From positions 12,214,001-12,278,000 of the forward strand of contig OX597828.1 in the NCBI GenBank assembly GCA_951406725.2: a DNA stretch of 64,000 nt, given 5' to 3'. The position numbers were made by a program, and so were the translations under genes. The notes beneath the pieces are model-generated. The model made no database searches. It had not been told where the DNA came from and saw only the letters and a program-made list of their open reading frames with translations. Below, one piece after another: positions 7,731-61,380 of the stretch. Source of the stretch: Octopus vulgaris. Its lineage: Eukaryota. Each line of letters begins with the position of its first letter. Position 1 is the stretch's first letter.

Positions 7731-8160
7731 AAAGATGTATGTATGTATATATGTGTGTGTGTATGTATGTATATGTATGTGTGTATGTGTTTATATGTAT
7801 GTGTGTGTATGGGTGTGTGGTATATGTATACATACGCACACACACATGTAATGAAACACTCCAACGTTGTTGCTTAATTAGGAAATTTATGCGTACGTGT
7901 GGCTGTGTGGTAAGTAGCTTGCTTACCTCTGTCGTGGATAGACGTTTTTTTTTGTTTTTTTTAGGCAGTGAGTCAAACGTTTTGTTGAAGGTTGGATAAT
8001 TTTTCTGTTGGAATTGTTGTTTATTGTTGAATATTTTCGAACTGCTGAACATTGTCCAACTTTTAAACTTTGAGAACTTTTGTGCTTTTTCCCGGTGACG
8101 GGAAAAAGTAATTGTTGAAATATTGAAATTATTAATATTATCAATATTGAACTTATTAAA

Positions 8161-8592
8161 GCCGTTGTAGGCTTTATTCACGTGCTCCCCACTCCAGCGG
8201 GGGTGGCATTTGATCTGCTATCCTCATTAAGAGGAAAAAATATTATAGGTTTCCCGTTTTGGGGGATAATCAATTTATTATTGTGTGAAAAATTAAATTT
8301 TAGTCGTTGTAGGCTCTATTGTGGCACCCAACCCTAGCGTGGGTGAGATTTGAACTGTTGTCCTCGTTGTGAAGAAAAAAATATTATAGGTTTCCCGTTT
8401 TGGGGGAATCTGTATTTTTATTATTGTGTGGAAAAAAAATTAATTTCGAACGTTGTAGGATTTGTTGTTACATCTCGCCTACCAGCGAGGGTGGGATTTG
8501 AACTGTTGTCCTCGTTGAGAGAAAAAAAAGTAAAATATTATAGGTTTCCCATTTTTTGGGATTAAATTGTGTATACATTTATTTCGAACGAA
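8161..8592 (+). repeat. Three ~143-bp tandem monomers in the LINE 5' UTR
   Basis: CGTTGTAGG...ATTTGAACTG...AATATTATAGGTTTCCC recurs at ~8163, ~8305 and ~8451. Confidence 0.8.
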
Positions 8593-8593
8593 T

Positions 8594-9370
8594 ATGTCGG
8601 TCGAAATAATTCAAGAAACACACCAGCTGCAGGAGCCAGCAAAAAGTTCGCGGCAGTAGCCGTTGAATCGTGTAGAAATGTAGTAATACAAACGGAGAAG
8701 CTCTCCGAACTTTTTGAGAAAATGAAAGAGGAGGGTGAGGTTATAAAGATCTCGCCCTCCCCTAGTGTTGAAAATATGAAGAGAAGGATGAACGTACTGT
8801 CCTTCATCGAAAATATTCAAGCACTTCGAAAAGGCCATGCACACACCGGTTTCAACAGAAACGAATGCACCCATCCCCTCTGAAGTAACAACTCCTCTGG
8901 AAGACACCATGGAGGTGACCGAGAGGGAGTTCAAGACACCCAGGAAAAAGAGAACGCTTGCACCTTCCCCATCCATATCCCCCACAAAAAAAGAAGAAAA
9001 CCAACACACCACAGAAAAAATAAAAGTTCCCTCTCCACTGTCTCAGAAGAGAAAATAAAAAAGAAAAAAGACGGAACAAAAACCCTGGTAAAATTTGATA
9101 CTGGGGATAAATATATCATAGACACATTAAAGAACCATCACATCGTGGAACTATTGCAGCAGCCAGAAGGCACGGAAGAGAGATGAGCCTGGATACCAGA
9201 AAAAACTATATAATGAAATGAAGGGTAGGCATCCGAGGACCACCACGAACATCTCGGACCTTCCGCGGTATTTGAAGGAGTTTTTGAAGGAGCAGGAGGA
9301 AAGGACTGCCTCACGTGTGGTGAGGTCAGCCCTAGCATCACCAATAAAAGAAAAAGTCAAAGAGTAAGTA
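8594..9370 (+). pseudogene. LINE ORF1 remnant (frameshifted)
   Basis: Broken, Lys/Glu/Pro-rich frames between the 5' UTR and ORF2; a CLTCG knuckle-like motif near 9307. Confidence 0.5.
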
Positions 9371-9396
9371 GAACCCTTGCTTTTCTTTTGTTTAAA

Positions 9397-12300
9397 ATGA
9401 CTGCATTTAACCTTGGGTGTTTGAATGTGCGTGGTCTGAGCTCGAAGTGGAAGCAAGCTTGTTTCCTTGACGACCTCAGATCACACAATATGCATGTATT
9501 GGTTGCTTGCTACAGAGACCAAGCTGGACAGTCTACAAGCCTTCTCGCCTCTCCTGAATGACTATGCGACAATCCTGTCACCAAGCCGGACCGGAGGGCG
9601 AGTGGGTGTAGCAGTAATGGTTCGAAAAGGCTTGGCTCTGCAGACAAGTACAGTCTATGTAGACCCAGAAGGTGGGCTGGTCGTCCTTGATGTGACATAC
9701 AGCATTAAGGCCTTCAGGTCGATCGGGATCTATGCACCTTGTGCTAGAGGATTTCAAACTGATTTTTATCGACGCCCAGAGAACTCTTTCGTGCCGTCGA
9801 AGACATTAGTGGTGTTAGGTGACTATAACGCTACCGTTGACGCACGCATCGATAGCGTTGGCTCGATCTATAGGAAAGTAAACTCACGTCTCGTAGATCT
9901 GCTCAAGCGTTTTAACCTGGCAGATCGTTACAGACTTGACCATCCGAACGTCTCAGAGTGGACTTGGATGAGTGGCGACGGAAGGTTCAAGTCCTATTTA
10001 GATAGGATAGTGATAAGAACTGGAGATAAGTCTAGTTTTAGCTGTCCACAGCTTGTCCAAGTAGCTTCCATTTACCATAGAATGGCTAAGTGTAGACTGG
10101 ACATAGATAGTACAGTAAAAATAGAATCCAGCTACTTGAAGCTGAACAAGTCTATTTTGACTTGCGAGGCACGCAGTAGCCGGATTAAGGAATTAGTACA
10201 GAGGGCGCTAACCAGCGCGGTGGTTAATAACCGATGGTGGTTCGCCCTCAAGAGATCTATTCGTTTTGAGTCTATTAGGTTTAGATGTCAGCTAAGACTA
10301 GATAAGGCCAGAATAGAAGGGCAACTAGTTAAGGACCTACAGGAGGTGTTGAGGTTGGGCTCTGCATCTCACATTTTGGCAGCGAGAATGGCCTTGGACT
10401 GTCACCTCAAAGCTAAACATGAGAGGTGCAGAGTTCGGGCTAAAGTGCACGCAGAGGACCGTGAGGGAATTAATGTTGCCGGATGGGCCCGTACGGTAGA
10501 AACCCAGCGTGGCAATGATGCCACAATTAGGTCTCTCGTGGATGAAATGGGTGTTCGGTCGAAAGACGGGACGAGATGTGTGAGGCGATTCACAAGCACT
10601 TTTCCGAGTTATTTGGGAATGGCGGGGCACTGGATCATGGCGAGGCTCTTAGGGACTTCCTGTCTGGTGGCCCGCGCCTCTCGGCACGAGAGGCTAAGTG
10701 CTGTGAAGCGCCAATCACGGCCGAGAATGTGAATAAAGTACTGGGCGAATGTCCCAGGGAGAAGTCGCCGGGTCTCGATGTGCCTTACGAATTTTTGTAT
10801 GCCAGACTTGTTCGGGGACCTGCTGGACAGCATCTACACCAATTGGCAGCAGAATGGGAGAATTCCCAAGTCTGCGAGCCGAGGGGTGGTGACGTCGATC
10901 AGGAAGAATCTGAAGGACGAAATAGGGAACTTCAGGCTCATAACTCTGCTGAACACAGAGTTAAAGATTTTGGCCAAGGTGCTAGCGAAAAGGTTGGCGC
11001 GGGTCGTCGACAAACTTGTCGGGGAAGCGCAAACGTGCGCTATCCCGGGCAGGACGATCTACGACAATCTCCACCTTATACGCTACTGCATAGAGAGGGT
11101 GGGGAAGCTTTCTGTCGCGGGGGGGGGACACCGGTACATGTAGACCAATCTAAGGCATTCGATAGGGTCGACCATCGGTACTTGGCGGCGGTCTTCGAGA
11201 AGGCTGGCCTGGGACCGACCTTCCGCGGTTGGATTGCTGCGTTGTACAGCGACATCGAATCCGTCGTAAAAGTCAATGGTTTCATTTCGAAGCCATTCAG
11301 GATCGAGCGCTCTGTGCGTCAGGGGTATCCTCTGTCCCCGCTTTTGTATGTACTGGCTCTCGAGCCATTACTGCGGAAGTTGGAGACACTAGGGGGCGCA
11401 CATATGATCTATGGTGTGGAAGGGAAGCTACAGCTGTCAGTGGTGGAAGATGCTATCAAAATCTACGAGCGGTGGCAGGAGCAAAGATTAACAAGGACAA
11501 GTCAGTTGGTTTGCAGCTCGGCACCTGGAGGGGCAAGCCGATGCCGTCCAATAACGGAAGGTACTGTTAAGCTGCTTCGGGCCAGGCCTCCAGATAGAGA
11601 CAAACTGGAATCGGGTGGCCAGCAAGGTGACTGCTCTAACCCAGACCTGGTCTGGGCGGGCGTTATACTTGCTAGGAAAGGCGGGGGTGGTGCAGCTGTC
11701 CATAGCATCGGTTATACCTACCGTCCGACCGTGGTGCCTTGCCCCGACTTGTGGCTGAACAAGTTGGAGAGAATCCTTTTCCGCTTTTTGTGGAAGGAAG
11801 GAAAGCCACTCGTGAAGCGCTCTGTCTGCTGCCAGAAACCGCTAAAGGGTGGGCTTGGGATGCCTTGGCTGAGGATACGAAAGTTCGCGTTAAGGTTGAG
11901 GCACCTCTGGCTTTACCTGGATGGAGAGCAGGTGTGGTCATCGCATGTTCGGTTCTACCTTCCGCAATTAACGTCCTTAACGGACATTGGTAATTGGATC
12001 AAGCAGAGACCTAGGCTGGGGGACTGGCAATTGGAATGCCGCCAGGCACTTCAGCTACTCTACCGGGCGGACCATGCCGGCAATAGGAGTTCCACTGCGG
12101 ATTTCTATAGTGGGTTAGTGGAGGTAAAGTCCGAAGACGCCTTGGGGGAGACCCTGGGCTACGATGAAAATCAGTTAATCGACCTGTTCCGGAGAACTAT
12201 CGGCCCGAGGTATCTGGACAATTACCGGAAATCCCTGAATTGGCAGTACTTCCGTGCGGCATTACCTGTTCGTGATAAACTGTCATGGCCGGAAGTGCCG

Positions 12301-12679
12301 TCTCGCCGACATGTCCGCGGTGCGGGCAGGACAGGGAAACCGTCTGGCACGCATTTGTGGAATATCTGGAATTAAGGAGACTGATAGTTTTCGCAGAGCA
12401 ACAGTTGCCATCGATGAGAAGAGTACAGCTATCAGCTGAATCTATCATCGATATTGTGCCACCTCTTTCCCTTAACAGGGATTGAAGGCTTGCTTTTTCT
12501 GCGTAGTAGCCATACTGAAAGAAACAGTATGGAAGACGCGTGTGAGAGGCATAGTGTCGGGTACCTTTCTATCCGGCCAGGGGTTGGTTAGCTTTTGTAG
12601 TTACCACCTCAGTAGTAAGATCAGGCTGGAGAAGATGGAGCCTGTGGCGAGGAAGCTGGGAGTGTTCAGCACCGGGTAA
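9397..12679 (+). pseudogene. LINE ORF2: AP endonuclease, reverse transcriptase and C-terminal Cys/His motif, with several frameshifts
   Basis: MTAFNLGCLNVRGL; LGDYNA; SYLDRI; FRLITLLNTELKILAK; DQSKAFDRV; VRQGYPLSPLLY; GGLGMP; CPRCGQDRETVWHAF, spread over shifting frames. Confidence 0.9.
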
Positions 12680-12949
12680 GTGGAAGCCAAAAACAGGAAA
12701 GAAAATGCAAAGGGTCTACCCTGGTGGTTGGATGCCTATCCTTCACAGAAGCCATTACAAATTTTATTTGTAATGAGCGACGCTTAAGTCGAAAATTATA
12801 AATATATTCATTAAATTATTGGGTATTTTAATTGTAAATATTTTTTAATTGTAAATATTTAATCGCTACAGCTACTTCACACTTTTATGTTTGTCTGTCC
12901 CTGTTTGTCCGCTCTTTGTATTGCCTTCATGGCAAATACATATGAAATA

Positions 12950-13102
12950 AAGTAGCTTGCTTACGAACCACATGGTTCTGGGTTCAGTCCCACTGCGTGG
13001 CACCTTGGGCGAGTGTCTTCTACTATAGCCTCCGGCCGACCAAAGTCTTGTGAGTGGATTTGGTAGAAGGAAACTGAAAGAAGCCCGTCGAATATATGTA
13101 TG

Positions 13103-13164
<62 letters not shown>

Positions 13165-13376
13165 TGTATGTATACGTTTGTGTGTCTGTGTTTGTCCCCC
13201 AACATCGCTTGACAACCGATGCTGGTGTGTTTACGTCCCTGTATCTTAGCGGTTCGGCAAAATAAGACTGATAGACTAAGTACTAGGCTTACAAAGAATA
13301 AGTCCTGAGGTCTATTTGCTCGACTAAAGGCGGTGCTCCAGCATGGCAGCAGTCAAATGAGTAAAAGAGTAAAAGT
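12950..13376 (+). mobile_element. Remainder of the SINE A interrupted by the LINE (its first bases are at ~7898-7926)
   Basis: Continues the SINE A sequence exactly where 7926 stops (compare the intact copy at 60989). Confidence 0.85.
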
Positions 13377-13619
13377 TTGAAAATATTCCTGCTACACTTC
13401 TATAATTGTTTTGTGTGCTCTCTCCGTGCGTTATTATAACTTTTCACTGATAATAAACAAAAGCGAGAAAACCGAATGAGCGTCGGAGTAAAATCTCCAT
13501 CTGGAATAAATAAATTAATAAATTCTACTAACTACATGTATACTCTCCCATATATAGATAAATCCACACATTCAACAGATTGATAAATCTATATCTATAT
13601 CTAGGGATTGCAGTTAGAA

Positions 13620-23984: not shown

Positions 23985-24060
<76 letters not shown>

Positions 24061-24215
24061 GTTTCATTCAGTTTCCGTCTACCAAATCCACTCACAAGAC
24101 TGGTCGGCCCAAGGCGATAGTAGAAGATATTTGCCTCAGGTGCCACGCAGTGGGACTGAATCTGGAACCATGTGGTTGGGAAGCAAGCTCCTTACCACAT
24201 AGCCACGCCTGCGCC
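23810..24215 (-). mobile_element. SINE family A
   Basis: Reverse complement of head, body and tail, with central (TA)n. Confidence 0.85.
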
Positions 24216-24511
24216 TATATATAGGATTATGAATTGTTACAATTGAATAACTGCTTTAGTGTGTTTCGTGTATTTTGGGGCGGGTAGTATGAGTTTTCCA
24301 TACTGCAATCGTTTTACTTCCAGCATACACTCTCAGATCAAACAACTTGCCTGGCGATTGCACCTCCGATAATTATTACACCTGTGTACAATGTCGAATT
24401 TACTCAACAAAACGTCAATACTCTCCAATAAACCTACAAATAGAGCAGGGCCTCATTAAGACTTTTGAATCGAACATTCCTGATTCTCTTGGCATCTCTG
24501 CAACTGATTGT

Positions 24512-43080: not shown

Positions 43081-43117
<37 letters not shown>

Positions 43118-43285
43118 TACGAAGGGTTTTTTTCAGTTTCCGTCTACCAAATCCACTCCCAAGGCTTTGGTCAGCGTGTGGCTATAGTAGTAGACACTTG
43201 CCTAAGGTACCACGCAGTGGGACTAAACCCGAAACCATGTGGCTTGTAAGCAAGCTACTTACCACACAAATACTCCTGCGCCTAT
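42865..43285 (-). mobile_element. SINE family A
   Basis: Full reverse-complement copy. Confidence 0.85.
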
Positions 43286-43295
43286 ATATATTATC

Positions 43296-43342
<47 letters not shown>

Positions 43343-49463: not shown

Positions 49464-49536
49464 TCCTCGGTAGTATAGTGGTAAGTATCCCCCGCCTGTC
49501 ACGCGGGAGACCGGGGTTCGATTCCCCACCGGGGTG
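49464..49536 (+). tRNA. tRNA-Asp(GTC): tRNA-Asp(GTC), possibly a pseudogene
   Basis: TCCTCGGTAGTATAGTGGTAAGTATCCCCCGCCTGTCACGCGGGAGACCGGGGTTCGATTCCCCACCGGGGTG. It has an extra C before the anticodon stem and mismatches at 1:72 and in the T stem. TTTT follows at ~49551. Confidence 0.85.
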
Positions 49537-49561
49537 ACGTTAACGCTGTCTTTATTTTATA

Positions 49562-50682
49562 GGCGCAGGAGTGGCTGTGTGGCAAGCTACTTCACCCCAT
49601 ATGTTTGTCTGTCCTTGTATGTCCCCTCTATGTAACGCCTTAATGGCGAATTTTCATGAAATAAATTAGCTTGCTAACCTCTGCCGTAGAAAGACGTTTT
49701 GGCTGTGAGTCAAACGTTTTGTTGCACGTTGATAATTTTTCTATTGTTGAATGTTTATTGTTGAATATTTTCGAAATGTTGAACATTGTTGAACTTTGAA
49801 AACTTTTGTACTTTTTCCCGGTGACGGGAGAAAGTAATTATTGAAATATTGAAATTATTAATATTGAACTTATTAATATTATTAATATTGAACTTATTAA
49901 AGCCGTTCTAAGCTTTATTGTCGTGAAGCGGGGATGGCATTTGAACTGTCATCCCCATTAATAGGAAAAAAATATTATAGGCTTCCCGTTTTTTGGGATA
50001 AGCAATTTATTATTGCGAGAAAAATTACATTTTGGCCGTGGTAGGCTCTATTGTGGCATCCGCCACTAGTGTGGGCGAGATTTGAACTGTTGTCCTCGTT
50101 GTGAGGAAAAAAATATAATAGGCTTCCCGTTTTGGGGGATTCTATATTTTATTATTGTGTGAAAAAAAAATTGATTTCGAACGTTGTAGGCTTTGTTGCT
50201 ACGTCTCGCCCACCAGTGAAGGTGAGATTTGAACTGCTGTCCTCATGGTGAGAAAAAATATTATAGGTGGCCCGTCTTGGGGGATTCTGTATTTTTATTA
50301 TTGCGTGGAAAAAAAAATTAATTTCGAACGTTGTCGGTTCTGTTGCTACATCTCACACCCCAGCAAGGGTGGGATTTGAACTGTTGTCCTCGTTAAGAGG
50401 AAAAAAAAAGGAAAAAATTATAGGTTTCCCATTTTCTGTATATATATATATATATATATGGATGTGTGTGTTTGTGTGCCTGTGTTTTTCCCCCTCAACA
50501 TCGCCTGACAACCGATGCTGGTGTGTTTACGTCCCTGTAACTTAGCGGTTCGGCAAAAAGAGACCGATAGAATACGTACTAGGCTTACAAAGAATTAGTC
50601 CTGGGGTCGATTTGCTTGACTAAAGGCGGTGCTCCAGCATGGCCGCAGTCAAATCACTGAAACAAGTAAAAGAGTAAAAAGA
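49562..50682 (+). mobile_element. Composite: SINE A head, LINE 3' tip, target remnant, LINE 5' UTR (four monomers), SINE A tail
   Basis: ~49586-49665 matches LINE 12871-12950; ~49680-50435 matches LINE 7927-8555. Confidence 0.85.
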
Positions 50683-60390: not shown

Positions 60391-60988
60391 TATATACATA
60401 CACATATATATATATACATACACACACATACAAAGAGATAGAGTTTAGGGAAAGCAGATTGAGCGTCATTCTTTATTTCATATCTCTACATTTGTTTTCA
60501 CACATCTTCACACTCGTATTACATTGGTGCAATGATATAATCAACATATTCCCTAATCGCTACCATCCATTCAAGCTGCAAGATGTGTTTCTCCTGGTGA
60601 TTATTTTGAACAATTACTTCGATAAATCCGAATGTTATTTCACTCTACACAGAATATGAAAACCCAAAGAAGTGTGCTATTTCCAACAACTTGCAGACAA
60701 CACTAAGTCCCTAGATAAAATGGCGACAAACCGAAAGTATAACGAAATGCAAAATGAAAAAATAAAAAATAAACTCACATCTGGTTAACTCTAAAATACA
60801 ATTCTATCTTCACGGTAAGATTATTAGGAAGAAAAAGTTAAACGAAACAAGAATGAAATTAAGCGTTTAGTGATAATAATTTTATTAAATGATAAAGTTT
60901 GACCATTTCCTTGCTTGTCCACTATCTTCTTGAAAGGGATACATGTGTATATGTATGCTGTATGCATGTATGCATGTAAGTAAACATG

Positions 60989-61380
60989 TAGGAGTGGCTG
61001 TGTGGTAAGTAGCTTGCTTACCAACCACATGGTATCGGATTCAGTCCCACTGCGTGGCACCTTGGGCAAGTGTCTTCTACTATAGCCTCGGGCCGACCAA
61101 AGATTTGTGAGTGGATTTTGTAGACGGCAACTGAAAGAAGCCCGTCGTATATATGTATTTATATGTGTGTATGTGTATCTGTTTGTGTTTGTCCCCCTAG
61201 CAACGCTTGACAACCGATGCTGGTGTGTTTACTTAGCGATTAGGGAAAAGAAACCGATAGAATAAGTACTAGACTTACAAAGAATAAGACCTGGGGTCGA
61301 TTTGCTCGACTAAAGGCGGTGCTCCAGCATGGCCACAGTCAAATAACTGAAACAAGTAAAAGTGTAAAAGAGTAAAAGAG
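60989..61380 (+). mobile_element. SINE family A, intact (shows the empty LINE target site)
   Basis: GGAGTGGCTGTGTGGTAAGTAGCTTGCTTACCAACCACATGG... through to the tail. Confidence 0.9.

Follow-up and report, generated by a model that had tools for sequence, protein, structure and literature searches.

A decayed L1-clan LINE of Octopus vulgaris and its young relatives occupy one base of a tRNA-type SINE head

We analysed a 64,000-nucleotide stretch of the Octopus vulgaris genome (assembly GCA_951406725.2, contig OX597828.1, positions 12,214,001 to 12,278,000; hereafter the window), in which a long interspersed nuclear element (LINE) interrupts the tRNA-type head of a short interspersed nuclear element (SINE). 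All features of this locus lie on the + strand. The sequence AAGTAGCTTGCTTAC is present twice around the LINE, at 7912-7926 and 12950-12964; with up to two mismatches allowed it has seven matches in the window against 0.10 expected. The 5,023 bp between the two copies (7927-12949) encode endonuclease and reverse transcriptase (RT) domains in frameshifted form. Upstream lies the 5′ part of the host SINE head (7891-7911), which matches the intact SINE heads of the window and includes an A-box-like motif, TGGCTGTGTGG, at 7900-7910. Downstream, the remaining host SINE (12965-13380) consists of a B-box-like motif, GGTTCAGTCCC, at 12981-12991, a microsatellite middle and a short-repeat tail. These box labels were set by eye against the promoter consensus; Rfam gave no tRNA match on an intact SINE copy at E-values up to 10, and ARAGORN does not call the head as a tRNA. 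The interrupted site is continuous in intact SINE copies of the window at 24050-24240 (−), 43100-43310 (−) and 60960-61150 (+).

The LINE begins with a 5′ untranslated region (UTR; 7927-8593) in which self-matches reveal direct repeats of about 140 bp at 8160-8561. A remnant of open reading frame (ORF) 1 follows at 8594-9355, recognisable from its match to the intact, 488-residue, zinc-knuckle ORF1 of a young sister family introduced below; it aligns to residues 22-107 and 326-488 of that protein, the middle being unmatched. The ORF2 remnant (9376-12673) carries an apurinic/apyrimidinic (AP)-type endonuclease, an RT and a C-terminal zinc-binding region, broken by several frameshifts. Eighty nt before the 3′ end is AGCTACTT (12870-12877), the reverse complement of the first eight target bases, and at 12922-12934 the tail contains a hairpin with a 4-bp stem and a 5-nt loop that is common to the tails of the elements using this site. 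The downstream target copy (12950-12964) corresponds to the SINE from position 24 onward. In the upstream copy (7912-7926) the first 9–11 nt probably represent duplicated target and the distal bases the LINE’s own target-like 5′ end. The original prediction had described a 5-kb element between the A and B boxes flanked by a target-site duplication; the site and the split SINE were borne out, but a 15-bp duplication is partly an overstatement for full-length copies.

To collect further copies we searched the genome (2.8 Gb, 227 contigs) with LINE DNA, RT protein or LINE-end patterns, so that no SINE sequence entered the selection. The last 200 bp of the LINE yielded 30 loci taken from 40 scored, exact LINE-end patterns gave 48 matches in one search and 108 in a search for the young family, and an RT-fragment search scored 150 loci, 80 of which were fetched. 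This last search exposed the young sister family, whose members are 98% identical to each other and 85% identical to the window copy in the RT, and whose ORFs are intact (ORF1, 488 amino acids; ORF2, 1140 amino acids). Counts of 3′ ends cover loci L001-L210 together with the window and are lower bounds, identical contexts having been merged; they comprise at least 59 distinct ends of the old family, to which the window copy belongs, and at least 74 of the young one. At 131 of these 133 ends the LINE abuts one and the same SINE position or the core motif, in one orientation, and 114 ends run directly into the SINE body from position 24. At 17 ends the target core is followed by something else, which in 12 cases reads as the 5′ end of another, stacked element; the core is missing at two. 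Genome-wide, AAGTAGC directly follows 100 of the 108 exact young-family ends. Even if 300,000 SINE copies are assumed, any single insertion would have a chance of about 5 in 100,000 of landing on one given base in one orientation. Three young copies stand head to tail with only target sequence between them (G000:C9:2663544-2681954, L098-L100). Unrelated flanks, which would have spoken against a target-specific family, are thus not the rule.

Two side observations concern the copies themselves. Truncation is low for an L1-type element, since among the 30 young 3′ ends taken first, 27 belong to copies exceeding 1.5 kb (L141-L170). Five loci (L192, L197, L198, L204 and L209) combine the 3′ half of the window family with another sequence ahead of roughly position 906, which suggests that the 5′ UTR and ORF1 may have been exchanged between subfamilies.

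The SINE is a resident target and not part of the LINE. The 5′ end could be resolved in 47 young copies; upstream of it stands a SINE head in 40 and the tail of another element plus target in the other seven, and unrelated DNA lies beyond the SINE heads. Heads are also retained upstream of 21 of 33 5′-truncated copies shorter than 800 bp, at many different breakpoints. Across 40 young copies compared pairwise, the downstream SINE diverges by 8.6% over its first 150 bp, as against 1.0–1.2% within the LINE, and the downstream SINE variant differs between near-identical LINEs. A SINE variant reading TAAC adjoins one of 50 old-family ends and 22 of 38 young-family ends, stacked copies included. 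Exact intact heads number 25,456 with TTAC, 27,720 with TAAC and 2,954 of a third variant; these counts and the variant shares of the two families fit insertion into the SINEs that existed at the time. The concern that the SINE-like flank belongs to the LINE consensus is therefore answered in the negative, and the proposal of a family using an abundant SINE as its target is supported by this residence together with the 3′ ends.

Truncated and full-length copies differ in what they say about duplication. Truncated copies have true duplications of up to 15–16 bp, with private variants on both sides (L028, L177, L182). Where the downstream target of a full-length young copy has TTA, its upstream junction has CTAA in all 15 cases, and a single case shows the reverse (L190). 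This indicates that the element itself starts with about seven target-like bases and that the true duplication is about 9–11 bp, so the 15-bp match in the window is not a pure duplication. The old family shows a like pattern with CTTACC (L049, L201), and the 5′ end of each family thus appears to carry the SINE variant of its time. An extra T is found at the 5′ junction of 20 of 47 young copies and is read as having arisen at insertion; we rejected inheritance of the three young 5′-junction variants, which do not sort by subfamily.

The site is shared with elements that lack ORF2. A junction pattern common to all tails has 501 exact matches genome-wide. In seven of the first 30 an ORF2 match lies no more than 1.5 kb away; a few others are short tails belonging to these same LINEs, and a different tail is common to most of the remainder. 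Among 20 longer junction loci, ten are elements of 1.9–2.3 kb bounded by the SINE head or the target and without an ORF2 match, eight of which match ORF1. Intact members have a frame of about 420 amino acids with a zinc knuckle and end in a LINE-like tail. Their ORF1 is 29% identical over 196 amino acids to that of the young LINE, a divergence that marks them as old lineages and not recent deletions. Judging from this sample, many of the roughly 500 junctions would come from such 2-kb ORF1-only passengers. The tails have a hairpin of the form GCC-N5-GGC in 132 of 149 junctions; its outer pair is T-A in 127, C-G in three and unpaired in two, and one family changes both bases.

We consider it very probable, from these sequence patterns, that the window element is a full-length but decayed member of an L1-clan lineage, likely Tx1, whose copies sit at a single base of a SINE head that the genome carries more than 56,000 times, the likely reason being that the ORF2 endonuclease nicks GTGGT^AAGTAGC and primes reverse transcription there. 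A nick in the bottom strand would start target-primed reverse transcription, and the top strand would be nicked up to 16 nt downstream. Full-length transcription may start inside the upstream duplication, giving an RNA that begins with target-like bases; these could pair at the 5′ junction and rebuild the 3′ half of the site for the next insertion. Because the ORF1-only elements share both the tail hairpin and the site, they may be moved in trans by an ORF2 that recognises the common 3′ hairpin tail. In this reading the SINE is an abundant, renewable and harmless landing pad, not a passenger of the LINE.

Several points weigh against this interpretation. An automatic rule detected an upstream SINE head in only 15 of 46 truncated old copies and six of 11 truncated young ones, although many of the head-less copies look like products of later insertions, deletions or a different 5′ half. 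The RT tree described below was a quick one, without any named Tx1 or vertebrate L1 row. Finally, no empty allele was bridged in public reads: no contig of X1, X2, X10, X15, X4 or X5 spans the junction at L156. At that locus the alignments of the X1 and X2 flank contigs end on the final base of the SINE head, leaving four and two letters unaligned, and a contig of X4 enters the LINE by one base; these ends give a weak hint of presence/absence variation, which we do not count as evidence.

Of the alternatives, the one that fares best holds that RNA leads the targeting: a read-through transcript would pair with the site, as would the antisense motif of the 3′ UTR, and the endonuclease would be only loosely specific. 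An antisense copy of 8–10 nt of the target is present in the 3′ UTR of the old, the young and a third autonomous family and of one ORF1-only family (shuffle p ≤ 0.003), that is, in four of nine tails; it is weaker in three further tails (p 0.02–0.03) and non-significant in two. The motif lies 80 nt from the end in LINEs as against 42–48 nt in ORF1-only elements, and in a sister family associated with U2 genes 10 nt are complementary to that family’s own site (p 0.01). However, three other sister families have no such complement of their target in the 3′ UTR (p 0.38–0.85), and the families share ancestry, so occurrences of the motif are not independent. The motif also pairs with read-through RNA in the folds of six of the nine tails and may be a signal for RNA structure or processing rather than a guide. 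We accordingly regard targeting led by RNA as improbable. Slightly less doubtful, though still unlikely in our estimate, is a milder version in which this guild of LINEs is partly steered by RNA, through 5′ bases copied from the SINE variant of the era and a 3′ UTR copy antisense to the cut site, which is proposed to pair with read-through RNA or with the displaced target strand. If this were so, the site choice of an AP-endonuclease retrotransposon would be set in part by base pairing and could be changed via its RNA.

That the SINE is instead the LINE’s own passenger, nesting in itself at the same site, might be read from 136 SINE-start matches within 14 nt of the site and one further case at L048. 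Over half of the 100 matches listed are nonetheless a single tandem array on C21, and of ten loci examined the six with a recognisable tail resume no outer SINE and look like duplications of the head. Moreover, none of 124 SINE starts in the fetched DNA is preceded by the site, most of them following TA-rich DNA, and the SINE tail is without the LINE’s hairpin tail; we hold self-nesting to be very improbable. The C21 array itself (G000:C21:41960885-41963848) has a 33-bp unit made of the SINE head up to the target site.

Still less credible is that the SINE halves belong to the element, either as a SINE-LINE-SINE composite or with the SINE body carried along by 3′ read-through. It is true that the full-length element opens with roughly seven bases copying the target, and SINE and LINE distances correlate weakly (rho 0.2, from non-independent pairs). 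Against this stand the varied breakpoints behind SINE heads in the short copies, the roughly eight-fold higher divergence of the SINE flanks, and the ORF1-only elements that occupy the same site with unrelated bodies. Insertions at non-SINE sites also occur without any SINE: L182 has a 16-bp duplication starting AAGTAGC, L210 has the same core and L186 a looser match. As these keep the core motif, they argue for sequence recognition over a composite element. Equally remote is the idea that the lineage really aims at a tRNA gene sharing this D-loop sequence and merely spills over into SINEs, for although the tRNA-Asp genes of this genome read GTGGTAAGTAT, one base off the target core, all 12 fetched tRNA-Asp loci (of 107 exact matches) are uninterrupted, and none of 19 listed ends lacking a SINE body continues into tRNA-Asp sequence, tRNA-Asp being the only tRNA covered.

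The placement of the LINE can be narrowed from its proteins. The intact ORF2 of the young sister family has the layout of the L1 clan, with an N-terminal AP-type endonuclease, an RT and a C-terminal zinc-binding region, and the window copy agrees. The best solved relative is human L1 ORF2p (E 1e-66, against 1e-19 for R2), and two ORFs, 5′ truncations and target-site duplications of up to 16 bp are further traits of that clan found here. The young ORF1 contains a zf-CCHC domain (E 2e-05) and no Transposase_22; its nearest clusters are CCHC and ZCCHC3-like, which we treat only as a lead, and PMC9004415 holds nothing on ZCCHC3. In non-mammalian animals CCHC-type ORF1s are tied to Tx1 (PMC5203782); plants have the type too. 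Tx1 membership is likely on the strength of the ORF1 type, the ORF2 layout and the target habits, both the preference seen at the 3′ ends here and those of sister families. The nearest named protein, at 64%, is from Argonauta hians. A quick RT tree of 62 rows, 52 of them hand-chosen from homolog lists and the window copy not among them, joins the SINE-targeting families in one clade (SH-aLRT, an approximate likelihood ratio test, 99). The clade belongs to an octopod group, where families with other targets are its neighbours; coral and lancelet proteins fall with this group, plant L1s apart from it. Neither the homolog searches nor a cluster look-up turned up a named Tx1 or vertebrate L1 sequence. 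We assign the window copy to the SINE-targeting families on its 85% RT identity to the young family and its identical endonuclease loop.

The endonuclease hairpin loop of the SINE-targeting families differs from the loops of families with other targets, and more distant families (66–69% DNA identity) do not use this SINE. One sister family is young (L103-L120, 98.8% identical in the RT) and its 3′ ends run into (TC)n microsatellites, which adjoin all 15 ends found among 16 loci. The U2 sister ends 8 nt upstream of complete U2 small nuclear RNA (snRNA) genes (L124, L129, 6646-6848); in other copies of it (L125-L128) the end is followed by a repeat that likewise opens with ATCG and that Rfam does not match. 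A further young sister with intact ORF2 has a fixed site in a repeat (L130-L138), with a four-copy cluster at G000:C2:73045699-73069681. Young, intact and closely related endonucleases come with four targets (the SINE head, (TC)n, the start of U2 genes and another repeat), and they offer a natural series for how AP-endonuclease specificity switches.

Targeting by itself is familiar from this group. In vitro, the endonuclease of Tx1L has been shown to nick the target of its own element, and its hairpin loop affects site choice (PMC1950540). Families within transposons include Tx1L in Tx1D of Xenopus (PMC4494074, PMC1950540) and, in crocodilians, Tx1-Mar in Mariner-N4_AMi, Tx1-8_Crp and Tx1-4_AMi in long terminal repeat (LTR) elements and Tx1-9_AMi in Harbinger elements (PMC4494074); Tx1 families aimed at DNA transposons, LTR elements, U2 and microsatellites have been described (PMC4494074, PMC1950540, PMC5203782, PMC3747384, PMC5035012, PMC8869645, PMC5786205). 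The octopus lineage resembles the transposon-targeting families as an AP-endonuclease L1/Tx1 LINE at a fixed position in another mobile element, but its target is an RNA polymerase III-type SINE head, entered between the promoter boxes, and no SINE target is named for those families in the text consulted. Its specificity of 131 in 133 compares with a threshold of 20% in PMC4494074. As with Tx1-Mar, whose target is also used by SINEU, passengers occupy the same target; here they are ORF1-coding elements, whereas those of Tx1-Mar are snRNA-headed SINEs. The sister families adjoining (TC)n and U2 resemble Kibi and Koshi, at (TC)n and (TTC)n, and Keno, at U2 snRNA, by target only (PMC4494074), and unlike Keno the U2-linked family ends upstream of the gene and not inside it. 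The ORF1-only elements (about 2.0–2.3 kb, no ORF2, LINE-like tail) recall HAL1 (half-L1), HeT-A and Ag-Sponge (PMC5786205); here, by contrast, one sequence-specific site is common to several families and to the LINE that probably helps them, and they stack with that LINE. Dada likewise has a fixed insertion point close to the A box of a tRNA-type sequence (PMC8869645), yet it is a DNA transposon aimed at real tRNA genes, and the word SINE is absent from the main text of that paper. Active L1-Tx1 families are listed in an octopus repeat annotation from 2026, in which the word ‘target’ does not occur (PMC13282606), and the passages of PMC8967140 that were searched contribute nothing on targets. 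We found no description of a LINE targeting a SINE head in the literature searched, although Repbase, Kojima and Fujiwara 2004 or the supplements of PMC4494074 could hold one. The target-specific habit of L1/Tx1 elements is thus known, and the SINE-head target, used here by ORF1-only passengers as well, is apparently of an undescribed kind.

These families reverse the usual relation in which a SINE exploits a LINE, since LINE and half-LINE families use one SINE and part its promoter boxes. The occupancy is only about 1 head in 100 (501 junctions, compared with 53,176 intact heads for the two variants concerned), which suggests that the benefit to the LINE, a safe site, outweighs any restraint it puts on the SINE. 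In addition, the old and young LINE families record different SINE subfamilies, which helps to date waves of repeats.

A second use of the same SINE position had been proposed for 49562-49680. The use is real, but it consists of two stacked remnants and extends over 49562-50672, again on the + strand. A second SINE head (49562-49582) is split at the identical site and followed by the 79-bp 3′ end of a sister family (49585-49663), with a tail of the type seen in L089 and L102. A target copy with two mismatches (49664-49678) separates it from the 5′ UTR of another element (49679-50438), 82% identical to 7960-8563, and the SINE 3′ remainder left after a deletion occupies 50441-50672. This head stands downstream of a tRNA-Asp gene (region 49464-49562); here and at three of the 12 fetched tRNA-Asp loci (L241, L249, L250) a SINE head lies 15–35 nt downstream of the gene. 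Genes for tRNA-Asp also form tandem arrays with a 158-bp period, at G000:C5:51226965-51304277.

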